Source: Escherichia coli (GTDB taxonomy: Bacteria > Pseudomonadota > Gammaproteobacteria > Enterobacterales > Enterobacteriaceae). Taken from it: a stretch of 64,000 bases of DNA. Each line of letters opens with the position of its first letter. Position 1 is the stretch's first letter. Under the pieces are notes generated by a model. The model worked only from the letters and a program-made list of their open reading frames with translations. It was not told the DNA's origin and searched no databases. Below, in pieces: positions 5,310-42,976 of the stretch. The position numbers and the translations under genes are program-made. The DNA is taken from assembly GCF_003334335.1 (NCBI RefSeq), contig NZ_QOWQ01000002.1; one strand, 5' to 3'.

Positions 5310-7124
5310 CTACTCTCCCTGTTTGCTGGCGGACGGCAGTTTGGCCGCTTTATTGACGTCATACCACCAGGTATCGATACCGAGGCTATAGATGGGGCGC
5401 ACGGCCGGCTGGGAGAATTTATCCCACCAGGCGAGACGGTCTTCCGCCATGTACCACATTGGCAGCATGTAATAATTCCACGTTAATACGCGATCCAGTG
5501 CTCGCCCCAACGGCAGTAATTTTTCTTTATTTCCCTGCGCGGCAATAATTTGGTTGATCTGCGAGTCGATAACCGGGCTTTGCACGCCGGGGGCATTATA
5601 AGTGGAATTGATATATTCCGATGACCAGGAAATCTGTAAATCGGAACTGGGCCACGGCATCGCCCGCCATACGCGCGGCATCATGTCATAGTCGCGACTG
5701 CGCATGCGGTTAGTGATTTGCGAGTTATCCACCTTGCGAATGTCCATGTTGATACCCAGCCGTTGCAGGCTGTGCTGGAACGGCAATACCCACTGACTAT
5801 TGCTGCTTGCGGGAAGCAATAATTCAAAGCTGAGTGGCTGACCCGTTGTGGCATTAACGCGTTGCTGACCCTTCAGCACCCAGCCCGCTTCGTTGAGAAG
5901 TTTGTCGGCTTTTAACAGGTTGTCACGATCGTAGCCATCGCCTTTGGATACCGGCGGCTGGTAGATTTGTGTGAAGACTTCTGACGGTAGATCTTTTTTC
6001 ATTGGTGCCAGAAGCACCAGCTCCGCGGCGTCGGGGTAATTTCTGGCCGCGTATTCGGTATTCTGAAAATAACTGTTCGTGCGACTCCAGGCATTGTAAA
6101 ACAACGCCTTGTTCATCCATTCAAAGTCAAAGGCGAGAGTGATAGCTTCCCGGACCCGGCGATCGCTGAATACCGGACGTTGGATATTAAACGCCAGCCA
6201 ACGCGTATCCTGGGCTGATTCGTTCTTTTGCTCATCTTTGATGATGTATTTTTTATCGAAATTTTTACCGGTATAACGCGTGGCCCAGTTTTTGACGTCG
6301 TTTTCCATACGCAAATCAAAGGCACCTGCTTTAAACGCTTCAAAGGCGACATTATCATCGAGGTAATAATCGTAGCGAATGGTGTCGAAATTCCAGCGTC
6401 CACGGTTTACCGGTAAGTTTGCTGCCCAGTAATCTTTCACACGGGAATAGACAATATTTTGCCCCATTTTCCAGGACGTAACGCGGTACGGACCACTGGC
6501 AAGCGGAGGCGTGGCGAGCGGGTCGCTAAGTTTGTGATCCTTCCAGTACTTTTCTGGAAATACCGGCAGCGAAAACAGACTCAGCATATCTTCTTTGCCG
6601 GGTTTAGCTAACTCAATGCGCACGGTTAACGGTGCAATGGCTTTGACGGTGGTGCCTTTGTAGACCAGACGAAATTGCGGCACGCCTTCGGTCATAAATT
6701 TTTGAAAAGTAAACTCTACATCGCGGGCAGTAATGGGCGAACCATCATGAAAACGGGCGCGCGGATTAATAGCGACCTCCACCCAGGAATAATCGTCAGC
6801 ATAGCGTGCGCTTTCAGCAATCAGCGGGTAATAACTGCCTGGTTCGTCATCGGAAGTCGTAAATAGCGTGTCGTACAGCTGCTCGGTGCGTGCGCCCGGG
6901 TTGCCGCGCAGTGCATAGCGGTTGAAATTATCGAAGGTGCCGAGGGCTGACAACGTTATCTGCCCACCTTTTGGCGCGGCGGGGTTCACATAATCAAAAT
7001 GGTTGAAATTAAACGCGTACCGGGGTTCGCCCAGCACGGCAAAGGCATAGCTTTCCTTGATAGCCTGCGCCTGCACACCAAAGGTGAACAGAGCGATAAA
7101 CAGCAGCAGTATGCGCACAATCAT
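5310..7124 (-). CDS. yejA: Periplasmic oligopeptide/microcin C-binding protein of the YejABEF ABC transporter
   Basis: About 604-aa ORF with N-terminal signal peptide ([16 protein letters not shown]); start trimmed by two codons from ORF track. Confidence 0.92.
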
Positions 7125-7205: not shown

Positions 7206-8762
7206 TTACCACTGCGGCGTATACGGTTTCTTTAGCCAGCGAACAAAATCGTCCAGCGGTAACGGGCGGCTAATCCAGTAGCCTTGCATGAAATTAACGC
7301 CGCGTTCGCTTAGCCATCGCGCCTGTTCCGGCGTTTCGACCCCTTCAGCAACCGTCAGCATATTGAGGCGTTTCGCCAGCGTCAGCACCGCGTCAAGTAC
7401 GGGGGAAGTGATCGTTTCCGTACCGATGGCGTTGATAAATCCACGGTCAATTTTCAGATAATCGAGCGTAAAACGCTCAAGATAGATAAGCGCGCTGTGC
7501 CCGGTGCCGAAGTCATCAATAGCAATTTCTACGCCGACCGAGTGCAGCCAGGCGAAGAGTTGTGTGGCTTCTTGCTCTTTCAACATATCGCGCTCGGTAA
7601 TTTCCAGCACAATCTGGAAATGGTGTGCGGGCAGGGAAGTGAGCAGTTTCTGGATATCTGCTTTAAAGCTTTCGCTGTGCAGATGGTCCGGCGCAATGTT
7701 AATACCAAATTTGACGCCTACCGGCAGCACTTTTTCTAATTCTGCGGCATCGCGGGCAATTAACTCAAACAGGTGCTGAGTCAGCGGCACAATCATCTTT
7801 TGCGATTCGGCAAAGTTAATGAAGGCATCCGGGGGAATTTCTCCCGCGACAGGATGCCGCCAGCGTAGCAGTACTTCCAGGCCCGTTACTCGCAAAGCTT
7901 GTGTATCCACCACCGGTTGATACGCCACGTAAAATTGTTCGCGCTTGATGGCGGTCATGATTTCTCTGCCGGGGCGCATACGTACGCTCATCAGGTAATA
8001 GCAGAGCAGGCCAACGACAGTTCCACTCATGCCGCCCAGTAAAAATGCGTACCACACATCGTTCCATGTCCAGTCATCTGCATAAAGCCGAACGGTCAGA
8101 GGAATGCCCGCAATTTTAGTTTCACGGACTGGCATGTCGGTTAATTCGTTAACGTTCATCAAACGTGAAGAAAAGGTAGATAGCGCAGTATTGCCAATAA
8201 TGAGGGCGACGCCATCGTAATCTTCCTGCCGTGAACTATAAAAGAGTGAAGGCGTCAGGTTGAGATTCAGAGCGGCAAAGACGCCGCTATTTTTCAGCAA
8301 AGGGTTGCGATACCAGATGACGATTGCGGGTTTGTTCGGCACCATCGGCGTGCCGGGTAAGATCGCCATATCGACGTTTTTATTAATGTCGAGCGCCGGA
8401 ATCAATTCATTGAGTGGAATGTCCATCTCACCGGTCGCAGATGAACAGAATGTTTTTTTATCTTTCACCAGCACAAACGTTCGGACATTCATGCTAAACG
8501 CTGCGCGGGCGGTCAGTTCGGGGTTAGCTTGCTGGCAGGTATCTAAGGTCAGCGGCTGGAGCCGGTCAGTAGTGGATTTCAGGTCGGCAAAATAGGTATC
8601 GAGATACTTTTGTACGTCGGTAATCAGTGTGTCGTATTTGACTTCGTGCTTATGCCAGGCCACTAAAAACTGAAGGCAACTCACCAGTATCGCAATCATT
8701 ACGCCTGCAACAATGCAGGTAAGCAGGAGCTTACGTCCAAAATTGGGAGCGCGTATGAACAT
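7206..8762 (-). CDS. pdeN: c-di-GMP phosphodiesterase, membrane-anchored EAL-domain protein
   Basis: 518-aa ORF with N-terminal TM segment and C-terminal EAL domain signature (EVLLRW...EITE...DDFGTG). Confidence 0.9.
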   Translation of the reverse strand: MFIRAPNFGRKLLLTCIVAGVMIAILVSCLQFLVAWHKHEVKYDTLITDVQKYLDTYFADLKSTTDRLQPLTLDTCQQANPELTARAAFSMNVRTFVLVKDKKTFCSSATGEMDIPLNELIPALDINKNVDMAILPGTPMVPNKPAIVIWYRNPLLKNSGVFAALNLNLTPSLFYSSRQEDYDGVALIIGNTALSTFSSRLMNVNELTDMPVRETKIAGIPLTVRLYADDWTWNDVWYAFLLGGMSGTVVGLLCYYLMSVRMRPGREIMTAIKREQFYVAYQPVVDTQALRVTGLEVLLRWRHPVAGEIPPDAFINFAESQKMIVPLTQHLFELIARDAAELEKVLPVGVKFGINIAPDHLHSESFKADIQKLLTSLPAHHFQIVLEITERDMLKEQEATQLFAWLHSVGVEIAIDDFGTGHSALIYLERFTLDYLKIDRGFINAIGTETITSPVLDAVLTLAKRLNMLTVAEGVETPEQARWLSERGVNFMQGYWISRPLPLDDFVRWLKKPYTPQW

Positions 8763-11776: not shown

Positions 11777-13243
11777 TTAAATTTTGAGGGTGTTTAATAG
11801 CGCCTGATGTGCGCCGAATTGTACGATTTGTTGCCAGGCTTGTTCGATGGCCTGCACAAAATGCGGGTTATCTGGCAGATCATCACCGAAAACTTCACGC
11901 AGGGAAAGCAGGGCGGTTACGCGTTGTTCACTGCTGCTGCCCGCAACAAGTTCGCGAATTTTATCGCTAAGCGGATCGCGAACATCAATGGCATTTCCGG
12001 CATCATCAACGCCGCTGACGTAACGCATCCAGCCTGCAACGCCTAATGCCAGCAACGACCAGTCCGTTTCGCGCCCCTGATGTATGCGAATACCTGCCAG
12101 CATGCGTTGCGGTAATTTCTGGCTGCCATCCATCGCGATTTGCCAGGTCTTATGTTTCAGCGCCGGATTAGCAAAACGTGCAATTAACTTATCCGCATAT
12201 TGTGTTAAATCGACATCTTTAATTTGCAGTGTCGGCGCTTGCTCATCCAGCATTAATGTTCTGGCGGCATGGCGAAATGCGCGATCCTGCATGCAATCAC
12301 TGATATGGGCGAATCCTGAGAGGTAACCCAGATAAGCGAGAAAAGAGTGGCTGCCATTAAGCATCCGCAGTTTCATCTCTTCCCATGGCAGGACATCATT
12401 CACCATTTGTACACCTGCGACTTCCCAGGCAGGACGCCCAGCGACGAAGTTATCTTCCACCACCCACTGGATAAACGGTTCGCAGCTAATCGCGCAGGGA
12501 TCATTCACCCCCAGATGCTGGCTGATTTCCACCAGTGATTCGTCGGTTGCAGCCGGAACAATGCGGTCGACCATGGTTCCCGGAAAACTGACGTGCTCTT
12601 TTATCCACCCGGCGAGTTCTGGCGAACGTTTTTCTGCCATTCCCAGCACCGCGTTTTTCACCACATGACCATTGTCGGGAATATTGTCGCAGGAGAGCAC
12701 GGTAAACGGTGTAAGGCCGCGCTCACGGCGGCGTTTCAGTGCTTCGACGAGAATACCCGGTGCGGAGTGAGGTTCTTCAGGGGTTTGTAGATCGTGAATA
12801 ATCCGCGGATTACTGGTGTCGAGTGCACCGGTGGCCGGGTCAATACAATAGCCTTTTTCGGTAATCGTCAGGGAAACAATTGCCACCTGTGGCTCGCAAA
12901 ATTTCTCAATAATTGCCGCTAAGGAATCCAGTTTTGCATTAAGGCATTCGTGAACGGCACCGACAATTATCACCTGATTGCCGTCCGCACCTTTCTCCAG
13001 CACGGTATATAAATGGTTCTGTGCGCGGAGCTGGCTCATCAGTTGATCACCGCTGAACAAGCTGATTTCACAGATCCCCCAGTCGCCGCCCTGGGCATTC
13101 AGCACACGATCGGTCAGTAACGCCTGATGAGCGCGGTGAAAGGCTCCAAAGCCAAAATGAACGATACGTGATTGCAACTGCTGGCGATCATAGCGTGGAG
13201 CGTGTACATGATGCGGGAGCGTAACGGAGGCGATTGTATTCAT
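11777..13243 (-). CDS. yeiQ: Mannitol/fructuronate dehydrogenase-family NAD-dependent oxidoreductase
   Basis: About 488-aa ORF with N-terminal Rossmann motif (HFGFGAFHRAHQA); exact start uncertain by 3 codons. Confidence 0.85.
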   Translation of the reverse strand: MNTIASVTLPHHVHAPRYDRQQLQSRIVHFGFGAFHRAHQALLTDRVLNAQGGDWGICEISLFSGDQLMSQLRAQNHLYTVLEKGADGNQVIIVGAVHECLNAKLDSLAAIIEKFCEPQVAIVSLTITEKGYCIDPATGALDTSNPRIIHDLQTPEEPHSAPGILVEALKRRRERGLTPFTVLSCDNIPDNGHVVKNAVLGMAEKRSPELAGWIKEHVSFPGTMVDRIVPAATDESLVEISQHLGVNDPCAISCEPFIQWVVEDNFVAGRPAWEVAGVQMVNDVLPWEEMKLRMLNGSHSFLAYLGYLSGFAHISDCMQDRAFRHAARTLMLDEQAPTLQIKDVDLTQYADKLIARFANPALKHKTWQIAMDGSQKLPQRMLAGIRIHQGRETDWSLLALGVAGWMRYVSGVDDAGNAIDVRDPLSDKIRELVAGSSSEQRVTALLSLREVFGDDLPDNPHFVQAIEQAWQQIVQFGAHQALLNTLKI

Positions 13244-13465
13244 AGGAGTCACGTCTTAGTAACGATTAATTAACAACGACAGTGTAAAGTTATATGACAG
13301 CAATTGAAATTGGTCTGGATTGTTAATGCGATGAAGTGTGAGGGCGATCAATCAACGAGTGAAAATTGAGGGCGTAAGGTGTTCAGGAAGCGCAAAATAG
13401 AAGATTGGTATAATAAATTAAAAAAGGGACAGCCTGAGCTATCCCTTTTCTGCATGCGGCTGAAG

Positions 13466-14038
13466 TTAGTCAGCACGCCCCATATAACGGCGTTCTTCGA
13501 TATGGATACGAATTTTTTCGCCCGGGCTTAAGTATTCTGGTACCTGAATCACCAGACCAGTGCTCAATGTCGCCGGTTTGTTACGGGCGCTGGCAGATGC
13601 CCCTTTGATGCCTGGTGCGGTTTCAACGATTTCCAGATCAACGGTCTGCGGCAGCTCAAGCGCCAGCAGTTGACCGTCCCAGGTCAGCACCTGCATGTCC
13701 GGCATGCCGCCCTCTGGCATAAACAGCAACTCTTCTTCAATCTGATCTTTGGTGAAGGTATACGGGGTATAGTCTTCTTTATCCATAAAGACATATTCGT
13801 TGCCATCGACATAGGAGAAGTCAACGTAACGGCGGGTCAGCGTCACGGTGTCAACGATATCATCACCTTTGAAACGCTCTTCTACTTTCAGCCCGGTACG
13901 GACATCAGAAAAACGCATTTTGTACAGCGTAGCGGCACCGCGGGCAGTGGGCGACTGAATATCAATATCCTTAACCAGCAGCAGTTTGCCGTTGTAATTC
14001 AGTACCATACCTTTTTTAATTTCGTTCGCTCTTGGCAT
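13466..14038 (-). CDS. yeiP: Elongation factor P-like protein
   Basis: 190-aa product from internal Met ([15 protein letters not shown]); the 275-aa ORF-track version is an upstream in-frame over-extension. Confidence 0.9.
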
Positions 14039-14192
14039 CGAAAAATTCCTGTAGTCGAAAATGTCAAAAATATCGCGACAAAGTACTCGCGACGGGCCTT
14101 TCGGGCAAGTGGTATTCGCACTTTTGCTGGTGCAAAAAAGGTGGTACTGTGCGCGCTCATCAATCCGGTGGTTAACCTTAAGAGAACAACGT

Positions 14193-14447
14193 ATGGAATG
14201 CCGTCCGGGTTGCGGGGCGTGTTGCACTGCCCCTTCAATTTCCAGCCCTATTCCCGGTATGCCAGATGGCAAGCCCGCCAATACGCCCTGCATTCAGCTT
14301 GATGAACAGCAACGCTGTAAAATTTTCACCTCGCCACTGCGACCGAAAGTCTGTGCAGGCTTACAAGCCAGCGCTGAAATGTGCGGTAACTCGCGTCAGC
14401 AGGCCATGACCTGGCTTATCGATCTGGAAATGCTGACCGCGCCTTAA
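14193..14447 (+). CDS. yeiW: Small Cys-rich protein, UPF0153 family (84 aa)
   Basis: Start at [11 protein letters not shown] inside ORF 14061..14447; Cys-cluster motif; divergent from yeiP. Confidence 0.8.
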
Positions 14448-15625
14448 ACATCTTTAATCCGCAGTAAGCAAAACAGAGTGGCGATAATCATCACCATCGC
14501 AAACCAGAACACAGCGTGATAATTCCAGATCTCGGCGACGATGCCCGCCACTGATCCTGCGATGATCCAGCCCACGCGCGAAGTGTTGGTATAGAGCGTG
14601 GTGGCTGAACCCGCCTGACCGGGCATCAGATCCTGAAAATAGAGCATCCCGATGCCGCCCAGAATGCCAATAAAAATAGCATTTAGCAGCTGCAAGCCCA
14701 ACAGAATGACAGGTGAATGCGCCATCAGCATTCCTGCGTAAAAACAGACGCCACCCACGGCAGCAACGCGCATTAAGAAACGCTTACCCAGACGTTTGGC
14801 GAAATATCCGGCAATCAACATCGTCGGGATTTCCAGCCCGGCGGCGGTCCCCATCATCACACCGGCCAGTTTCTCGGGAAGATGCAGTTCGTTGATAATA
14901 AATAGCGGCATGTTGATGATGTACAGGCTGTTCGAGCCCCACATCAATGTACAAATGACAAACAGCAGCAGCGTATCGCGACGGTTACGGCGCGGCGCTT
15001 CGATCGTGCCGGTCGCCAGCGGAAGCTCTTTTTGCATCGACGGTAAAAACAGCCACACCATCACACCGCAAACAATAAACGCTACCGCTGCGCTCAGATA
15101 CATTACCGTAAAGCTGAAACCCATCGCTAAGGCATAAGCCAGCGGTGGGCCAATGACCCATGCCAGTGAAACCTGAGCGCGTAAAAAAGAGCTGAACATC
15201 ACCGCCTCACGTCCGGTTTTGTCGGCATGTTCACGGGCAAGGGCAAACATTTGCGGGTTAGCGGTCGAGCCAAAGCTGCTAAGAAAGACGCCAACGAATA
15301 GCAAAACAAAGTAGTTGCGATTCCAGGCAAAAAGGGTGCAGGCCAGCACGCCTAACAGGCAGCAAAAGACAATCAGCGATTTGCGATCGCCGCGCTTATC
15401 AGAGCGCCCGGCGAGAAACTGACTTACCAGAATCCCAATGACAGCGCTGCCGGTAAAGAAGAATCCCACCATCGCCGGACGGGCATGTACTTCATCGGTA
15501 AGAAAAATACTGAGTGTCGGGGTTTGCAGAGCGCCCGCAATACCGGTGAGAAAGGCAACGATTAAAAACGCCGTCGAGGTCAGGTCAAACGATTTCGCGC
15601 TGGAGACTGCGGGGGAGTTATGCAT
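14444..15625 (-). CDS. setB: Sugar efflux transporter B, MFS
   Basis: 393-aa 12-TM MFS-like ORF; adjacent to the fru operon as in K-12. Confidence 0.9.
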
Positions 15626-15890
15626 GCTGGTCGATCACTGGAAGAGGAAGACGCGGAGTTTACGCTGCTTGTCAGAAAATAAACAGACAGCGAAATCAAA
15701 AGCGCCACGAATAGTCAAAATGCCATTTCACTGTTGCTGATTGGCTGCTGACGCTGCTGAAATGAAATTGCTGATAACGGATTTTCCCATCAGCAATTAG
15801 GAAAAATGGCAAAAAATTGTGCAGCACATCAAACTTTTGCTCATAACTTTACGGCTTTCCTTGCGTGCTGAAACAGAAGTATTATGCTTT

Positions 15891-15906
15891 CTTGAAACGT
15901 TTCAGC
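15891..15906. promoter_or_regulatory. Cra (FruR) operator in the fruB promoter
   Basis: cttgaaacgtttcagc contains the perfect palindrome TGAAAC|GTTTCA matching the Cra consensus. Confidence 0.8.
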
Positions 15907-15957
15907 GCGATCTTGTCTTTAACCCTAAGCCAGGTTGGCGCTTTTTTTCTCATAGAG

Positions 15958-15978
15958 GCTGAATCGTTTCAATTCAGC
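15958..15978. promoter_or_regulatory. Second Cra (FruR) operator, promoter-proximal, in front of fruB
   Basis: gctgaatcgtttcaattcagc, a one-mismatch version of the Cra palindrome 15 nt upstream of the fruB start codon. Confidence 0.75.
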
Positions 15979-15992
15979 AAGAGAGGAGAACT

Positions 15993-17123
15993 ATGTTCCA
16001 GTTATCCGTACAGGACATCCATCCGGGCGAAAAGGCCGGAGACAAAGAAGAGGCGATTCGCCAGGTCGCTGCGGCGCTGGTGCAGGCCGGTAATGTAGCA
16101 GAAGGCTACGTCAATGGCATGCTGGCGCGCGAACAGCAAACCTCAACGTTCCTCGGCAATGGTATTGCTATTCCACACGGCACTACCGACACCCGCGATC
16201 AGGTGCTGAAAACCGGCGTTCAGGTATTTCAGTTCCCGGAAGGCGTCACCTGGGGTGACGGTCAGGTAGCGTACGTGGCAATCGGTATTGCTGCCAGCTC
16301 GGATGAACATCTGGGCCTGCTACGCCAGCTGACCCACGTACTGAGCGATGATTCCGTTGCTGAACAACTGAAGTCAGCAACAACAGCAGAAGAACTTCGC
16401 GCATTACTGATGGGCGAAAAGCAGAGTGAGCAGCTGAAGCTCGACAACGAAATGCTGACACTGGATATCGTCGCCAGCGATCTGCTGACTCTTCAGGCGC
16501 TGAACGCTGCGCGTCTGAAAGAGGCGGGGGCAGTTGACGCCACTTTCGTCACCAAAGCCATCAATGAACAACCGCTGAATCTCGGACAGGGTATCTGGCT
16601 GAGCGATAGCGCCGAAGGCAATCTGCGTAGCGCGATTGCGGTAAGCCGTGCGGCAAATGCTTTTGATGTGGACGGCGAAACGGCAGCCATGCTGGTGAGT
16701 GTGGCGATGAATGACGATCAGCCCATCGCGGTTCTTAAGCGTCTCGCTGATTTATTGCTCGACAATAAAGCTGACCGCTTGCTGAAAGCGGATGCGGCAA
16801 CGTTGCTGGCGCTGCTGACCAGCGATGATGCGCCGACCGACGACGTGTTAAGCGCGGAGTTTGTGGTGCGCAATGAACACGGCCTGCATGCTCGTCCAGG
16901 TACCATGCTGGTCAATACCATTAAACAATTTAACAGTGATATTACCGTGACAAACCTTGATGGTACCGGCAAACCGGCAAACGGACGTAGTCTGATGAAA
17001 GTTGTGGCACTTGGCGTTAAGAAAGGTCATCGCCTACGCTTTACCGCCCAGGGTGCAGATGCTGAACAGGCGCTGAAAGCAATCGGCGACGCTATCGCTG
17101 CTGGTCTTGGGGAGGGCGCATAA
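15993..17123 (+). CDS. fruB: Fructose PTS multiphosphoryl transfer protein (IIA-FPr)
   Basis: 376-aa ORF; Cra operators and an RBS upstream; overlaps fruK start (ATGA). Confidence 0.95.
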
Positions 17124-18061
17124 TGAGCAGACGTGTTGCTACTATCACCCTTAATCCGGCTTATGACCTTGTTGGTTTCTGCCCGGAAATTGAACGCGGC
17201 GAAGTGAACCTGGTGAAAACCACCGGTCTGCATGCGGCGGGTAAAGGCATCAACGTGGCCAAAGTATTAAAAGACCTGGGAATTGATGTCACCGTTGGCG
17301 GCTTCCTGGGTAAAGACAATCAGGATGGTTTTCAGCAACTGTTCAGCGAGCTGGGCATTGCCAACCGTTTCCAGGTTGTACAGGGGCGCACCCGAATTAA
17401 CGTTAAGCTGACGGAAAAAGACGGCGAAGTGACCGACTTCAACTTCTCGGGTTTTGAAGTCACCCCCGCCGACTGGGAACGCTTTGTGACTGATTCTCTG
17501 AGCTGGCTCGGTCAGTTCGATATGGTCTGTGTCAGCGGAAGCTTACCGTCAGGCGTCAGCCCGGAAGCGTTCACCGACTGGATGACTCGCCTGCGTAGTC
17601 AGTGTCCTTGCATTATCTTTGATAGTAGCCGTGAAGCGTTAGTAGCAGGTTTGAAAGCGGCACCGTGGCTGGTGAAACCTAACCGCCGCGAGCTGGAAAT
17701 CTGGGCAGGCCGTAAACTGCCTGAAATGAAAGATGTGATTGAAGCTGCACATGCGCTACGTGAACAAGGCATCGCGCATGTTGTTATTTCACTGGGTGCC
17801 GAAGGCGCGCTTTGGGTTAATGCCTCCGGCGAATGGATCGCCAAACCACCGTCAGTCGATGTCGTAAGCACCGTTGGCGCAGGGGATTCTATGGTTGGTG
17901 GCCTGATTTATGGCTTGCTGATGCGTGAATCCAGTGAACACACACTGCGTCTGGCGACAGCTGTTGCAGCCCTGGCGGTAAGTCAAAGCAATGTGGGTAT
18001 TACCGATCGTCCGCAGTTGGCCGCAATGATGGCGCGCGTCGACTTACAACCTTTTAACTGA
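17123..18061 (+). CDS. fruK: 1-phosphofructokinase, PfkB family
   Basis: 312-aa ORF with PfkB motifs (GKGINVA..., GAGDSMVGG). Confidence 0.95.
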   Translation: MSRRVATITLNPAYDLVGFCPEIERGEVNLVKTTGLHAAGKGINVAKVLKDLGIDVTVGGFLGKDNQDGFQQLFSELGIANRFQVVQGRTRINVKLTEKDGEVTDFNFSGFEVTPADWERFVTDSLSWLGQFDMVCVSGSLPSGVSPEAFTDWMTRLRSQCPCIIFDSSREALVAGLKAAPWLVKPNRRELEIWAGRKLPEMKDVIEAAHALREQGIAHVVISLGAEGALWVNASGEWIAKPPSVDVVSTVGAGDSMVGGLIYGLLMRESSEHTLRLATAVAALAVSQSNVGITDRPQLAAMMARVDLQPFN

Positions 18062-18077
18062 CAGCAGGAGAGGCATA

Positions 18078-19769
18078 ATGAAAACGCTGCTGATTATTGA
18101 CGCTAATCTCGGTCAGGCACGCGCCTATATGGCGAAGACCCTGCTGGGCGCGGCGGCGCGAAAAGCAAAACTGGAAATCATCGACAATCCGAACGACGCT
18201 GAAATGGCGATTGTTCTCGGTGATTCCATCCCGAACGACAGCGCGCTGAACGGTAAAAATGTCTGGCTGGGCGATATTTCCCGGGCAGTTGCGCACCCTG
18301 AGCTGTTCCTGAGTGAAGCCAAAGGCCATGCGAAACCTTACACTGCGCCGGTCGCTGCGACAGCACCAGTTGCCGCCAGCGGTCCGAAACGCGTAGTTGC
18401 GGTGACTGCTTGCCCGACTGGCGTAGCACACACCTTTATGGCGGCTGAAGCCATTGAAACCGAAGCGAAAAAACGTGGCTGGTGGGTGAAAGTTGAAACC
18501 CGTGGTTCTGTTGGCGCGGGTAATGCAATCACTCCCGAAGAAGTCGCAGCAGCGGATCTGGTGATTGTGGCGGCAGATATCGAAGTGGATCTGGCGAAAT
18601 TTGCTGGTAAACCGATGTATCGTACCTCTACCGGTCTGGCGCTGAAGAAAACCGCGCAGGAACTGGATAAAGCGGTTGCTGAAGCAACGCCGTATGAACC
18701 GGCGGGCAAAGCTCAAACGGCGACCACTGAAAGTAAGAAAGAGAGTGCAGGCGCATACCGTCACTTGCTGACGGGCGTTTCTTACATGCTGCCGATGGTC
18801 GTTGCAGGTGGTCTGTGTATCGCGCTTTCTTTTGCTTTTGGTATCGAAGCGTTTAAAGAGCCGGGTACGTTGGCTGCGGCGCTGATGCAGATTGGTGGTG
18901 GTTCAGCCTTTGCGCTGATGGTGCCGGTACTGGCAGGTTATATTGCCTTTTCCATTGCCGATCGTCCGGGCCTCACTCCGGGTCTGATTGGCGGTATGCT
19001 GGCGGTCAGCACCGGTTCTGGCTTCATTGGTGGTATTATTGCGGGCTTCCTGGCTGGTTACATTGCGAAGTTAATCAGTACGCAATTGAAACTGCCACAG
19101 AGTATGGAGGCGCTGAAACCGATCCTGATCATTCCGCTAATTTCCAGTCTGGTGGTCGGTCTGGCGATGATCTACCTGATCGGTAAACCAGTTGCTGGCA
19201 TTCTCGAAGGGCTGACTCACTGGCTGCAGACCATGGGGACTGCGAATGCGGTTCTGCTGGGGGCGATCCTCGGTGGCATGATGTGTACTGACATGGGCGG
19301 TCCGGTAAACAAAGCAGCGTACGCATTCGGTGTGGGTCTGCTGAGTACTCAAACCTATGGCCCGATGGCGGCGATTATGGCGGCAGGTATGGTGCCACCG
19401 CTGGCAATGGGTCTGGCAACAATGGTGGCGCGTCGCAAATTCGACAAAGCGCAGCAGGAAGGTGGCAAAGCCGCTCTGGTATTGGGACTGTGCTTCATTT
19501 CGGAAGGTGCAATTCCGTTTGCTGCTCGTGATCCGATGCGTGTGCTGCCGTGCTGTATCGTGGGTGGGGCGCTGACTGGCGCAATCTCAATGGCGATTGG
19601 TGCGAAACTGATGGCACCGCACGGTGGTCTGTTTGTTCTGCTGATCCCTGGCGCTATTACGCCGGTATTGGGTTACCTAGTAGCAATTATTGCCGGTACG
19701 CTGGTGGCGGGTTTGGCCTATGCCTTCCTGAAACGTCCGGAAGTGGACGCAGTAGCGAAAGCAGCGTAA
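18078..19769 (+). CDS. fruA: Fructose-specific PTS IIB'BC component
   Basis: 563-aa ORF with IIB Cys motif (VTACPTGVAHTFMAAE) and polytopic IIC domain; terminator downstream. Confidence 0.95.
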   Translation: MKTLLIIDANLGQARAYMAKTLLGAAARKAKLEIIDNPNDAEMAIVLGDSIPNDSALNGKNVWLGDISRAVAHPELFLSEAKGHAKPYTAPVAATAPVAASGPKRVVAVTACPTGVAHTFMAAEAIETEAKKRGWWVKVETRGSVGAGNAITPEEVAAADLVIVAADIEVDLAKFAGKPMYRTSTGLALKKTAQELDKAVAEATPYEPAGKAQTATTESKKESAGAYRHLLTGVSYMLPMVVAGGLCIALSFAFGIEAFKEPGTLAAALMQIGGGSAFALMVPVLAGYIAFSIADRPGLTPGLIGGMLAVSTGSGFIGGIIAGFLAGYIAKLISTQLKLPQSMEALKPILIIPLISSLVVGLAMIYLIGKPVAGILEGLTHWLQTMGTANAVLLGAILGGMMCTDMGGPVNKAAYAFGVGLLSTQTYGPMAAIMAAGMVPPLAMGLATMVARRKFDKAQQEGGKAALVLGLCFISEGAIPFAARDPMRVLPCCIVGGALTGAISMAIGAKLMAPHGGLFVLLIPGAITPVLGYLVAIIAGTLVAGLAYAFLKRPEVDAVAKAA

Positions 19770-19926
19770 TAAAAGGTGTGTTACAGGGCAGAAATTTCCT
19801 GTCCTGTAACATTTGATGAGCGCAAAGAGAATGACCGGTTTGTGAATGTAATTTTATGAATTTAAATGGTTTTATCTTTCAGTAGAAACTTCAAACGTTC
19901 ATCAAACACTCAGGTTATTTCCTCAA

Positions 19927-19955
19927 GGGCAGATTATTTTCTGCCCTTTTTTATT
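19927..19955 (+). terminator. Rho-independent terminator of the fruBKA operon
   Basis: gggcag / ctgccc stem followed by a 9-nt T run. Confidence 0.85.
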
Positions 19956-20191
19956 GTTCTGTTCTGTGCATCCCGTCACAAATTCCTCGCTTTTGTAATT
20001 CAGGCATTTAATCGCATTTTGTGAGCCTGCTCAAATCTGCCCATTTTGCCTCTCTGGCGGTAATTTACTTTACGTAAAACATGCATACTATGAGCACATG
20101 TTTAAATATGAACACATGTTTAAACCGTCTTTGCAGTATCTATATTCTTGTGGATTGACAGGGTTGGTAATTTTTTACCAGAGGACGTGCT

Positions 20192-21133
20192 ATGCGCGAA
20201 AAGGATTATGTCGTAATTATAGGTTCGGCGAATATTGATGTCGCCGGATATTCACATGAATCATTAAATTATGCGGATTCAAATCCAGGTAAAATAAAAT
20301 TTACGCCTGGTGGAGTAGGGCGCAATATTGCACAAAACCTGGCGTTGCTGGGTAACAAAGCCTGGCTACTGAGCGCCGTAGGCAGTGATTTTTATGGTCA
20401 ATCGCTGCTAACGCAAACCAATCAATCTGGCGTTTATGTCGATAAATGCCTGATTGTGCCGGGAGAAAATACGTCGAGTTATTTATCATTACTCGATAAT
20501 ACCGGTGAAATGCTGGTTGCTATAAATGACATGAATATTAGCAACGCTATTACAGCTGAATATCTCGCACAGCACGGTGAATTTATTCAGAGGGCAAAGG
20601 TCATTGTCGCGGACTGTAATATCAGTGAAGAGGCACTGGCATGGATTCTGGATAATGCCGCCAACGTACCCGTATTTGTCGATCCGGTTTCGGCATGGAA
20701 ATGTGTCAAAGTGCGCGACCGTCTAAATCAGATCCACACTCTCAAGCCAAACCGCCTTGAAGCGGAAACCCTGAGTGGGATTGCGCTGTCAGGGCGTGAA
20801 GATGTGGCAAAAGTTGCTGCCTGGTTCCATCAACATGGCCTGAACCGACTGGTATTGAGCATGGGCGGCGACGGCGTTTATTACAGCGATATCAGCGGTG
20901 AAAGTGGCTGGTCTGCGCCGATCAAAACCAATGTTATTAATGTTACCGGAGCGGGCGATGCCATGATGGCGGGACTTGCTTCGTGTTGGGTAGACGGAAT
21001 GCCGTTTGCCGAATCTGTTCGTTTCGCACAGGGATGTTCGTCAATGGCGCTCTCCTGTGAATACACCAATAACCCCGATTTATCGATTGCCAACGTTATA
21101 TCGTTAGTGGAGAACGCAGAATGTCTGAATTAA
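20192..21133 (+). CDS. psuK: Pseudouridine kinase, PfkB family
   Basis: 313-aa PfkB-type kinase ORF; overlaps psuG start by 13 nt. Confidence 0.9.
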   Translation: MREKDYVVIIGSANIDVAGYSHESLNYADSNPGKIKFTPGGVGRNIAQNLALLGNKAWLLSAVGSDFYGQSLLTQTNQSGVYVDKCLIVPGENTSSYLSLLDNTGEMLVAINDMNISNAITAEYLAQHGEFIQRAKVIVADCNISEEALAWILDNAANVPVFVDPVSAWKCVKVRDRLNQIHTLKPNRLEAETLSGIALSGREDVAKVAAWFHQHGLNRLVLSMGGDGVYYSDISGESGWSAPIKTNVINVTGAGDAMMAGLASCWVDGMPFAESVRFAQGCSSMALSCEYTNNPDLSIANVISLVENAECLN

Positions 21134-22059
21134 AAATTTCCCCTGAATTATTACAAATTTCCCCGGAAGTGCAGGACGCTTTAAAAAACAAAAAACCGGT
21201 TGTGGCGCTGGAATCGACCATTATTTCTCACGGGATGCCGTTCCCACAAAATGCCCAGACCGCAATTGAAGTTGAAGAAACTATTCGTAAACAGGGCGCT
21301 GTACCTGCCACGATCGCCATTATTGGCGGCGTGATGAAAGTGGGGTTAAGCAAAGAAGAAATTGAATTACTGGGTCGTGAAGGGCATAACGTGACCAAAG
21401 TTAGTCGTCGCGATTTACCTTTTGTTGTTGCCGCCGGAAAAAATGGCGCAACCACTGTGGCTTCAACGATGATTATTGCGGCGCTTGCCGGAATTAAAGT
21501 ATTTGCCACCGGGGGAATTGGTGGTGTGCATCGCGGGGCGGAACATACCTTCGATATTTCTGCCGATTTGCAAGAACTGGCAAATACTAATGTCACCGTT
21601 GTTTGTGCCGGGGCGAAATCTATTCTCGATTTAGGATTAACCACTGAGTATTTAGAAACCTTCGGTGTGCCGTTAATTGGCTATCAGACTAAAGCGCTGC
21701 CTGCGTTTTTCTGCCGCACCAGCCCGTTTGACGTCAGCATTCGTCTCGACAGCGCCAGCGAAATTGCCCGTGCAATGGCGGTGAAATGGCAAAGCGGTCT
21801 GAACGGTGGCCTCGTGGTAGCGAACCCGATCCCGGAACAGTTTGCTATGCCGGAACACACTATCAATGCGGCGATCGATCAGGCGGTAGCTGAAGCTGAA
21901 GCTCAGGGAGTCATTGGTAAAGAAAGTACGCCATTCCTGCTGGCGCGCGTTGCTGAACTGACCGGCGGTGACAGCCTGAAATCCAACATCCAGCTGGTGT
22001 TCAACAACGCCATTCTGGCGAGCGAAATTGCCAAAGAATATCAGCGTCTCGCGGGTTAA
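21121..22059 (+). CDS. psuG: Pseudouridine-5'-phosphate glycosidase
   Basis: 312-aa ORF; operon position between psuK and psuT. Confidence 0.9.
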   Translation: MSELKISPELLQISPEVQDALKNKKPVVALESTIISHGMPFPQNAQTAIEVEETIRKQGAVPATIAIIGGVMKVGLSKEEIELLGREGHNVTKVSRRDLPFVVAAGKNGATTVASTMIIAALAGIKVFATGGIGGVHRGAEHTFDISADLQELANTNVTVVCAGAKSILDLGLTTEYLETFGVPLIGYQTKALPAFFCRTSPFDVSIRLDSASEIARAMAVKWQSGLNGGLVVANPIPEQFAMPEHTINAAIDQAVAEAEAQGVIGKESTPFLLARVAELTGGDSLKSNIQLVFNNAILASEIAKEYQRLAG

Positions 22060-22152
22060 TTTCTGACGGGCAGAAAGCCGTCGCCCGTACTCATCAAGCA
22101 TACCAAAACCTGGCGCTGACGCCGGGTTTACCGGCATGAAGGGAAAATCATT

Positions 22153-23402
22153 ATGGATATAATGAGAAGTGTTGTGGGGATGGTGGTGTTACTGGCAATA
22201 GCATTTCTGTTGTCAGTGAATAAAAAGAGCATCAGTTTGCGCACGGTTGGAGCCGCACTGCTGCTGCAAATCGCTATTGGTGGCATCATGCTCTACTTCC
22301 CACCGGGAAAATGGGCAGTAGAACAGGCGGCATTAGGCGTTCATAAAGTGATGTCTTACAGTGATGCCGGTAGCGCCTTCATTTTTGGTTCGCTGGTTGG
22401 GCCGAAAATGGATGTCCTGTTTGACGGTGCGGGTTTTATCTTCGCCTTTCGCGTACTTCCGGCGATTATTTTCGTTACTGCGCTCATCAGTCTGCTGTAC
22501 TACATTGGCGTGATGGGGCTGCTGATTCGCATCCTTGGCAGCATTTTCCAGAAAGCCCTCAACATCAGCAAAATCGAATCTTTTGTTGCGGTTACTACTA
22601 TTTTCCTCGGGCAAAATGAGATCCCGGCGATCGTTAAACCGTTTATCGATCGCATGAATCGCAACGAGTTGTTTACCGCAATTTGTAGCGGGATGGCGTC
22701 CATTGCTGGTTCGATGATGATTGGTTATGCCGGAATGGGCGTACCAATTGACTACCTGTTAGCGGCATCGCTGATGGCGATCCCTGGCGGGATTTTGTTT
22801 GCACGTATTCTTAGCCCGGCAACCGAGCCTTCGCAGGTCACATTTGAAAATCTGTCGTTCAGCGAAACGCCGCCAAAAAGCTTTATCGAAGCGGCGGCGA
22901 GCGGTGCGATGACCGGGCTAAAAATCGCCGCGGTGTGGCGACGGTGGTAATGGCGTTTGTCGCAATTATTGCGCTGATCAACGGCATTATCGGCGGAATT
23001 GGCGGCTGGTTTGGTTTCGCCAATGCCTCTCTGGAAAGTATTTTTGGCTATGTGCTGGCACCGCTGGCGTGGATCATGGGTGTGGACTGGAGTGATGCCA
23101 ATCTTGCGGGTAGCCTGATTGGGCAGAAACTGGCGATTAACGAATTCGTCGCTTACCTGAGTTTCTCCCCATACCTGCAAACGGGCGGCACGCTGGAAGT
23201 GAAAACCATTGCGATTATCTCCTTTGCGCTTTGTGGTTTTGCTAACTTTGGTTCTATCGGTGTTGTCGTTGGCGCATTTTCGGCTATTTCGCCAAAACGC
23301 GCGCCGGAAATCGCCCAGCTTGGTTTACGGGCGCTGGCAGCAGCAACGCTTTCCAACCTGATGAGTGCGACTATTGCCGGGTTCTTTATTGGTCTGGCGT
23401 AA
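22153..23402 (+). pseudogene. psuT: NupC-family nucleoside (pseudouridine) transporter, disrupted by a -1 frameshift near 22927-22934
   Basis: Two consecutive ORFs (22153..22950 and 22935..23402) together align along the full length of the intact 416-aa paralogue NupX; frame changes at gccgcggtg where NupX has gccgcaggtg. Confidence 0.8.
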
Positions 23403-23472: not shown

Positions 23473-24132
23473 TTACTGCATCATCCCGGAGAATTTATTC
23501 TCCGGGTCCATCTCCAGCGCCAGTCCTGACAACTGCTTTCTGTTTTTAATGAGATACCCTTTCTTGCTTTTAATTAATAAACCGTCGTGAATGAACTGCG
23601 CGAGAACATATAAAAGATGTCGATAAGAAACGCCTAAATACTCTGCCGCTTGCGTATGCTTTTCGTGATAAAGATCACCTTCCTGCGAGAGTAATATAAA
23701 TGCTGCCAGGCGATTCACTAACGGAAATGATTGATTCTGAGTTAAAGAAACAATATTACGATAATTTTTATGACTTAAGGTGACGCAGAGTTTTCGTAAA
23801 AATAGCGTGTCGTTTAATAACAGCGGACGGTAATGTTTCATAGGGAGCGCAAGGCACCAACACTCTTCAATAGCCTGCACCGCACGCGGTTCATGGTCTT
23901 TATCGATTAACTCAATCTCGCCAATAAAACAGGGGGCGGCAAAGAAATCGATCAGCGACACGCGACCATTAGCTAGCGTGGCGTAAAGCCTGGCGCGGCC
24001 TCGCGTCAGGTAAAACAGCCAGGACGGCTGTTGCCCTTCCTGCACAATGTAGTCACGCGCTAAAAAATGAAACAGCCGCGTATCGGCTGAAACATCCGTT
24101 AAAAAGCAATCCTTAAACGCGGATTCACTCAT
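23473..24132 (-). CDS. yeiL: Crp/Fnr-family transcriptional regulator
   Basis: 219-aa product from internal Met ([10 protein letters not shown]) with C-terminal HTH typical of Crp/Fnr. Confidence 0.85.
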
Positions 24133-24300
24133 CAATTGCTGCTTAAGATCATTATTGTGGATTTCTTTCACGATGTTTATCCGCTATGAGATTTCTCATA
24201 TTTAGCATACGTACGCTGTTGTTAAGATTCAATCATCGGCCCGGTCGAATTTTCTTTGCTGTAGAAAAAATAACGCAACTGGAAACAGAGGAAATAAACA

Positions 24301-25341: not shown

Positions 25342-26592
25342 ATGGATGTCATGAGAAGTGTTCTGGGAATGGTGGTATTGCTGACGATTGCGTTTTTACT
25401 GTCAGTAAACAAGAAGAAGATCAGCCTGCGTACCGTTGGCGCGGCGTTAGTGTTACAGGTCGTGATTGGCGGCATTATGCTTTGGTTACCGCCAGGGCGT
25501 TGGGTCGCTGAAAAAGTCGCTTTTGGCGTGCATAAAGTGATGGCGTACAGCGACGCGGGTAGCGCATTTATCTTCGGTTCTCTGGTCGGACCGAAAATGG
25601 ATACCTTATTTGATGGTGCAGGATTTATCTTTGGTTTCAGGGTGTTACCGGCAATTATCTTCGTCACCGCGCTGGTGAGTATTCTCTACTACATCGGTGT
25701 GATGGGGATTTTAATTCGAATTCTCGGCGGTATCTTCCAGAAAGCATTAAATATCAGCAAGATCGAGTCATTCGTCGCGGTCACCACCATTTTCCTCGGG
25801 CAAAACGAAATTCCGGCAATCGTCAAACCCTTTATCGATCGTCTGAATCGCAATGAATTATTTACAGCGATTTGTAGTGGCATGGCCTCGATTGCTGGTT
25901 CGACAATGATTGGTTACGCCGCACTGGGCGTGCCTGTGGAATATCTGCTGGCGGCATCATTAATGGCGATCCCTGGCGGGATCTTGTTTGCCCGCCTGTT
26001 AAGCCCGGCAACGGAATCTTCGCAGGTTTCCTTTAATAACCTCTCTTTCACCGAAACACCGCCAAAAAGCATTATTGAAGCCGCTGCGACAGGGGCAATG
26101 ACCGGGCTGAAAATCGCCGCAGGTGTGGCAACAGTGGTGATGGCATTTGTTGCAATAATTGCGTTGATTAACGGTATTATCGGCGGCGTTGGTGGCTGGT
26201 TTGGTTTTGAACATGCCTCGCTGGAGTCCATTTTAGGTTACCTGCTGGCTCCACTGGCGTGGGTGATGGGTGTGGACTGGAGTGATGCGAATCTTGCCGG
26301 GAGTTTGATTGGACAGAAACTGGCAATAAATGAATTTGTCGCTTATCTCAATTTCTCACCCTATCTGCAAACGGCTGGCACTCTCGATGCTAAAACTGTG
26401 GCGATTATTTCCTTCGCGTTGTGCGGTTTCGCTAACTTTGGTTCTATCGGGGTGGTGGTGGGGGCGTTTTCTGCGGTTGCGCCACACCGTGCGCCGGAAA
26501 TCGCCCAGCTTGGTTTACGGGCGCTGGCGGCGGCGACGCTTTCCAACTTGATGAGTGCGACCATTGCCGGGTTCTTTATTGGTTTAGCTTGA
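25342..26592 (+). CDS. nupX: NupC-family nucleoside transporter
   Basis: Intact 416-aa polytopic membrane ORF; close paralogue of psuT. Confidence 0.92.
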   Translation: MDVMRSVLGMVVLLTIAFLLSVNKKKISLRTVGAALVLQVVIGGIMLWLPPGRWVAEKVAFGVHKVMAYSDAGSAFIFGSLVGPKMDTLFDGAGFIFGFRVLPAIIFVTALVSILYYIGVMGILIRILGGIFQKALNISKIESFVAVTTIFLGQNEIPAIVKPFIDRLNRNELFTAICSGMASIAGSTMIGYAALGVPVEYLLAASLMAIPGGILFARLLSPATESSQVSFNNLSFTETPPKSIIEAAATGAMTGLKIAAGVATVVMAFVAIIALINGIIGGVGGWFGFEHASLESILGYLLAPLAWVMGVDWSDANLAGSLIGQKLAINEFVAYLNFSPYLQTAGTLDAKTVAIISFALCGFANFGSIGVVVGAFSAVAPHRAPEIAQLGLRALAAATLSNLMSATIAGFFIGLA

Positions 26593-42744: not shown

Positions 42745-42802
42745 TGTGAATGTGGTCCGCATTCGGTCATAAACGCACATAACATCATGATCTGTGTGGT
42801 TT

Positions 42803-42976
42803 TGTAGGCCGGATAAGGCGTTCACGCCGCATCCGGCAACAGGAGCCAAATGCCGGATGCAACGCTGGCGCGTTTTATCCGGCCTACAATAAGCTCAACA
42901 TACTGATTTGTATGGTTTTGTAGGCCGGATAAGGCGTTCAAGCCGCATCCGGCGACAGGAACCAAATGCCGGATGC
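42803..42976. repeat. BIME: two tandem ~115-bp units, each carrying REP copies, between mglC and preA
   Basis: Repeated tgtaggccggataaggcgttca(c/a)gccgcatccggc...ccaaatgccggatgc units. Confidence 0.85.

Follow-up and report, generated by a model that had tools for sequence, protein, structure and literature searches.

The psuT gene in a 64,000-nucleotide stretch of Escherichia coli DNA (the window, from contig NZ_QOWQ01000002.1) has lost one base, and the two open reading frames that now occupy the locus are jointly K-12 psuT minus that base rather than a chance pattern. Very probably the window comes from a K-12-like phylogroup A E. coli in which the deletion is genuine, recent and lineage-specific, with psuT now a pseudogene. 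None of the complete genomes with a match at this site has the deletion allele, yet the kind of event is routine, and what is seen is an ordinary recent psuT pseudogene that marks a small E. coli lineage. For annotation the locus is one psuT pseudogene, not two genes.

Over 1251 nt the sole difference from K-12 psuT (NZ_CP064679.1) is that a T has been lost after 22931, at the third position of the codon for Ala260, which is GCT in K-12, GCC in SE15 and GCA in nupX. At the break the window allele reads GCCGCGGT, the T-bearing form at 22927-22934 being GCCGCTGGT, and putting the T back in silico gives a 1251-nt reading frame of which both the DNA and the 416-aa protein equal those of K-12 psuT. 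After residue 260 the frame switches, with five wrong residues (VWRRW) followed by a stop that is premature relative to intact orthologues, and six native residues, 261-266, are absent from both fragments. An earlier note on this DNA had described psuT as split by a one-nucleotide deletion, with a -1 frameshift, a stop at 22948-22950 and halves that otherwise match NupX; the single T missing relative to K-12, the translation, and an alignment with nupX that is gapped exactly once, at the gcc-gcN-ggt junction, bear this out. The nupX string quoted there is present as given, though it starts at 26110 and not, off by one base, at 26111. The overlap of 16 nt that was claimed between frames of 265 aa and 155 aa is also in the list of open reading frames, where the downstream one is a mechanical call with a GTG start (22935..23402, + strand, 155 aa); gene callers annotate the 150-aa 3′ product on many contigs. 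Pfam models Nucleos_tra2_N, Gate and the start of Nucleos_tra2_C are matched by the 265-aa 5′ product. In the wild type, the loop of the hairpin at 22925..22941 is UGGU.

Table 1. Coordinates, in the window, of the psuT lesion and of neighboring genes
Feature	Position	Strand	Description	Basis
psuK	20192..21133	+	Pseudouridine kinase, intact, 313 aa	Annotated psuK in K-12 and strain 300709
psuG	21121..22059	+	Pseudouridine-5′-phosphate glycosidase, intact, 312 aa	Open reading frame; K-12 and 300709 annotation
psuT 5′ fragment	22153..22950	+	265 aa: native residues 1-260, tail VWRRW, stop	List of open reading frames
Stem-loop	22925..22941	+	7 bp, UCGCCGC-GGU-GUGGCGA; the deleted T was in the loop	Fold and inverted repeat
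Deletion junction	22931..22932	+	T absent between; K-12 GCC GCT GGT, window GCC GC-GGT	
Premature stop TAA	22948..22950	+	Product of the frame change; shares a base with ATG 22950-22952 (TAATG)	
psuT 3′ fragment	22950..23402	+	From ATG, native residues 267-416, 150 aa	
yeiL	23473..24171	-	Convergent with psuT	
nupX	25342..26592	+	Intact paralogue, 416 aa; 79% nucleotide and 88% amino acid identity to psuT	

The gene order, fruBKA / psuK-psuG-psuT / yeiL / rihB / nupX, is the same in the window, K-12 and strain 300709, and together with identity at 1250 of 1251 positions, the remaining one being the gap, this identifies the broken gene as the psuT orthologue. Retention of psuK and psuG had been claimed, and both frames are intact; indeed all other complete genes of the window that were checked, nupX included, translate full-length, and the psuK protein is that of strain 300709. 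With yeiL convergent, no gene follows psuT in its transcription unit; the stop thus has nothing downstream to affect and a polar effect is not expected. Gene conversion from nupX was considered as a source of the lesion and is ruled out, nupX being intact and reading GCA GGT here.

Whether the lesion is real or an error of sequencing or assembly had been left open earlier. That the strain truly has the T, and with it an intact 416-aa psuT, would fit a single-base indel in one record that is absent from complete RefSeq genomes, and false psuT frameshifts are indeed numerous in some error-prone assemblies, GCA_019431085.1 with its dozens of indels being an example. Against this, relative to the nearest complete genome, that of strain 300709, the 64 kb have 16 substitutions and one indel, the psuT deletion itself; with no other indel and other genes intact, the record is not error-prone, and the reading as a noisy assembly is ruled out. 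Relative to K-12 there is just one further indel, at 50880 in mdtQ, where the window has an additional A and the frameshift is K-12's own and known. A homopolymer or a Dcm (CCWGG) site as error context is likewise ruled out, since the lost T stood between C and G in GCCGCTGGT. The exact 265-aa aberrant product was found in a large protein collection on about nine Logan contigs from separate runs and nowhere else, this support consisting of read-derived assemblies of which some may be one strain sequenced repeatedly. Deletion included, an 11.2-kb contig of SRR30938087, present in 5 samples, has 0 differences from window 12153-23330, and an SRR32903638 contig has 0 differences from window 21988-23330. 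A contig of SRR27434586, compared over 1.3 kb, has the same deletion and three private transitions, at window 22023, 22041 and 22311, so that, of the three deletion contigs inspected, two match the window at every base. Separately assembled contigs thus encode the same truncated product, as befits a unitary pseudogene whose lesion is in the organism's DNA, and because contigs built separately carry it, the deletion is backed by the reads of several runs. These three assemblies favor an allele that truly exists in a small lineage over an assembly error, and we consider it highly improbable that the strain has the T.

The lineage itself can be followed with a private YejA variant of the window, which is also in GCA_012531195.1, SRR1815430 and SRR32903638, each without a difference from the window across 8-17 kb; GCA_012531195.1 and SRR1815430 are lineage matches by the YejA stretch, and the GCA_012531195.1 contig, of 90.5 kb, is large enough for the whole window. 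Within 10 kb of psuT there is no lineage-private protein. Scanning JGI metagenome contigs for the exact deletion pattern gave 0 matches, which counts neither way. Separately, the three SRR27434586 transitions, which none of the complete genomes has, may point to a mutator or a diverged sub-lineage, or else to errors of a low-coverage contig. Relative to the window, GCA_019431085.1 (JABTXU010000001.1, 4.77 Mb) has dozens of single-base indels over psuK, psuG, psuT, yeiL, rihB and nupX, and the fragmented genes of this error-laden assembly populate protein databases. From a practical perspective, a search of read-derived assemblies for the exact aberrant product can answer the question of real lesion or error even when the original reads are not at hand.

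A psuT match is present in 5,417 of 5,426 complete E. coli genomes. With an 80-bp probe centered on the break, 3,330 complete genomes match the site; the deletion is in none of them and none reaches 99% identity to the probe, the best matches differing by the gap alone. The single open frame is shared by the divergent B2 allele (SE15), by nupX and by solved homologues, and alignment to psuT of other E. coli, which the earlier note had proposed as a check, thus finds the longer form intact in 3,330/3,330 of the complete genomes matching the site. On these alignments the 416-aa single frame is clearly the ancestral form. Between K-12 and SE15 psuT, 134 nt differ with an amino acid altered at 8 codons only, and NupX and the two PsuT alleles share the motif GLKIAAGVATVVMAFV across the break without any change, all of which indicates that psuT is under strong purifying selection. 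Recency of the lesion, also claimed beforehand, fits the comparison with K-12 psuT: there is no further change in 1250 nt, and because psuT is otherwise unchanged the lesion is taken as recent.

A different type of explanation is that the site is a recurrent hotspot, the same T having been lost repeatedly, e.g. via the hairpin loop, and not once in one lineage. The T is indeed located in the loop of a 7-bp quasi-palindrome, and the SRR27434586 contig combines the same deletion with 3 sites different from the window in 1.3 kb. Those extras are private, though, and later mutation or low-coverage errors on the same haplotype fit better than a distinct background, while 0/3,330 complete genomes with the deletion is against a strong hotspot; repeated loss is very unlikely. 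Templating by the quasi-palindrome has no support, as loss of the T does not perfect the palindrome. In other assemblies, psuT indels that look independent seem to cluster near 22870-22950; this is judged a selection effect, because the loci were retrieved via a shared 150-aa reading frame that is made only by lesions just upstream of ATG 22950.

For the consequences at protein level, the T-restored (K-12) PsuT has in Pfam the CNT / NupC (SLC28-type) architecture, PF01773 (residues 8-81), PF07670 (98-196) and PF07662 (201-410), and the break at residue 261 is within PF07662. Similarity to two solved homologues covers residues 1-415 and is thus full-length (E=9.4e-132 for CNT_NW, 5L26; E=1.7e-125 for vcCNT, 3TIJ). 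In CNTs the nucleoside site is formed by HP1/TM4 and HP2/TM7, with the ribose contacts Glu332, Asn368 and Ser371 of vcCNT, along with Phe366, in the second half, and TM6 is a scaffold helix that stays static as the transport domain moves across it (PMC4139061). The four vcCNT ribose-site residues, Glu332, Phe366, Asn368 and Ser371 (PMC4139061), align to PsuT Glu331, Phe363, Asn365 and Ser368, and all of these are encoded 3′ of the frameshift. The vcCNT TM6 gate residue, Leu259, aligns with PsuT Ile258 (position 7 of the 3TIJ chain being native Met1); the frameshift begins three residues past Ile258, at the start of a hydrophobic segment, and a hydropathy peak of PsuT is centered on residues 261-281.

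Past residue 260 the reading frame is shifted, VWRRW is appended and translation halts at 22948-50. In the resulting 265-aa product the scaffold helices of the N-terminus would be kept, as would that half of the nucleoside site which HP1/TM4 form; it would end in TM6, devoid of HP2, TM7 and TM8. Because most of TM6 is missing, and HP2, TM7 and TM8 are gone completely, with the ribose-binding residues, the truncated PsuT is, judging from topology, most likely non-functional. Breakdown by psuK and psuG of pseudouridine from internal RNA turnover should go on, the loss being limited to PsuT-dependent uptake of external nucleoside.

What PsuT carries is relevant to how the loss is to be described. 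Uptake of uridine, cytidine, xanthosine and gemcitabine was not detected with plasmid-expressed PsuT, and NupX gave weak uridine and cytidine uptake (PMC11241209). In production strains, psuT deletion modestly raises extracellular pseudouridine titres and, as reported, inhibits import of pseudouridine from outside (PMC13090712); a direct pseudouridine uptake assay of PsuT was not found (PMC11241209, PMC13090712). That PsuT is a pseudouridine importer is deduced from its operon and from the indirect knockout data, and the earlier description of a strain devoid of its dedicated pseudouridine importer is reasonable but depends on this putative function. The 88% identical NupX might compensate for the loss of PsuT. 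As a natural psuT null with psuK and psuG intact, the strain, with an isogenic strain in which the T is restored, could test pseudouridine import by PsuT.

Two ways in which the split gene might nevertheless yield a transporter have to be weighed. One is that termination at TAA 22948-50 is followed by restart at ATG 22950-52, so that residues 267-416 and the 265-aa piece form a two-piece CNT. For some membrane transporters the separated halves can complement one another and sometimes reassemble, the TAATG stop-start overlap is present, and the downstream frame is exactly native 267-416, just six residues (261-266) being lost from both pieces. The TAATG overlap, however, is a by-product of the frame shift and unselected, the Shine-Dalgarno-like GGTGG is 2 nt 5′ of the ATG, a poor spacing, and the N-terminal piece terminates in charged WRRW. 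The cut is, moreover, within the TM6 scaffold helix, three residues after the gate position (PMC4139061), and among the homologues examined there is no natural two-piece CNT; a working split transporter has very little likelihood. A related proposal with added selective content is that the null allele is favored in a circulating lineage, PsuT loss blocking entry of harmful C-nucleosides or nucleoside analogues, or else that the TAATG-coupled fragments form a working split CNT. This is a long shot; if true, either would be the first clear phenotype for PsuT.

The other way is recoding: at CUA-AAA-AUC (22918-22926) the ribosome would slip by -1, with help from the hairpin next to it, and make a 416-aa protein in which IAA is changed to NRR. 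The tRNA-Lys on AAA 22921-23 can re-pair with AAA 22920-22, the slipped product has the 416 aa, the 7-bp hairpin follows, and an 83-nt stretch folds better than its shuffles (z = -3.1). There is no X XXY YYZ heptamer, however: in CUA AAA AUC the P-site codon alone re-pairs, the A-site codon AUC being unable to do so in the -1 frame, and the hairpin begins 1 nt past the slip codon when 5-9 nt is usual. Transcriptional slippage fares no better, five As being too few for it to be efficient. The hairpin and the A-run are equally in intact wild-type genes, where frameshifting is needless, and the allele is rare and derived with no conserved recoding signal; the 3,330 complete genomes matching the site, SE15 and nupX are all single-frame, which shows no conserved need for a shift. 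Productive recoding here is scarcely credible, and the preferred reading remains that of a recent null allele.

Several features of the wider region are pertinent in other respects. The window has 7 substitutions relative to K-12 over 41 kb, and more at its right end. There, in about 58000-64000 (bglX, osmF, yehY, yehX, yehW), divergence from K-12 jumps from those 7 substitutions/41 kb to about 2.4% past 59.8 kb, the K-12 alignment breaks at 59830-59859, in the bglX-osmF spacer, and many natural isolates of phylogroup A match the stretch at 100% identity; from the sequence, this looks like the boundary of a recombination mosaic. With the extra A at 50880 relative to K-12, mdtQ (yohG; 50729-52165) is in its intact, ancestral form of 478 aa, whereas K-12 has it annotated as a pseudogene, and this bears out that the window is no K-12 derivative. 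In the mglC-preA spacer, 42781-42976 has inverted repeats of about 80 bp that are 91% alike, probably REP/BIME-type elements.

The psu operon of SE15 (NC_013654.1; 3040-6251 of the retrieved locus, corresponding to window 20192-23402) is a deeply divergent form. Its DNA identity to K-12 is 80.6% for psuK, 88.5% for psuG and 89.3% for psuT, with flanking fruA, yeiL, rihB and nfo at 96-98%; about 860 complete genomes are in the 80-90% identity band, and PsuT protein is 98% identical across the divergent forms. The pattern suggests two forms of the operon, through either an old allelic dimorphism or operon replacement by import. SE15 has lost nupX, of which a 66-bp remnant (8187-8252 of the retrieved locus), annotated as an incomplete hypothetical protein, is left between rihB and a yeiI-like sugar kinase gene. 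The last ~100 nt of SE15 psuT (6151-6251 of the retrieved locus) are 98% identical to K-12 nupX (window 26492-26592) and 91% to K-12 psuT, and a short tract of gene conversion between the two paralogues may explain this 3′ end. Mosaicism with nupX as the origin of the ~10% divergent B2 psuT allele is not supported, save possibly for those last 100 nt.

Of known systems the closest is K-12 psuT itself (yeiM, b2164; WP_000353878.1), with DNA equal save for the missing T and with the neighbors fruBKA, psuK, psuG, convergent yeiL, rihB and nupX shared. Its frame is open, whereas that of the window is broken past codon 260, with no 416-aa product by normal translation. The paralogue nupX (yeiJ), 2 kb downstream, is of the same family and length with 88% protein identity; it is intact in the window, with GCA at the codon concerned, whereas psuT is broken. 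For vcCNT (3TIJ) and CNT_NW (5L26), with which PsuT aligns full-length and with conserved ribose-site residues, the difference is that they are complete, whereas the window product stops in the TM6 equivalent, before HP2, TM7 and TM8. Other natural psuT knockouts were found, none with the window's deletion. The complete genomes NZ_LR890508.1 (MSB1_9I) and NZ_CM128582.1 (600029) have IS1 insertions in psuT, the same gene being lost by a different lesion, and draft or metagenome assemblies have various small psuT deletions or insertions at other sites, of which some are probably assembly errors (e.g. GCA_019431085.1). A parallel in kind is K-12 mdtQ (yohG), a non-essential gene for a membrane protein in which one lineage likewise has a one-base frameshift, and in the same chromosomal neighborhood (within a few tens of kb), except that there the lesion is K-12's and the window has the intact 478-aa gene.
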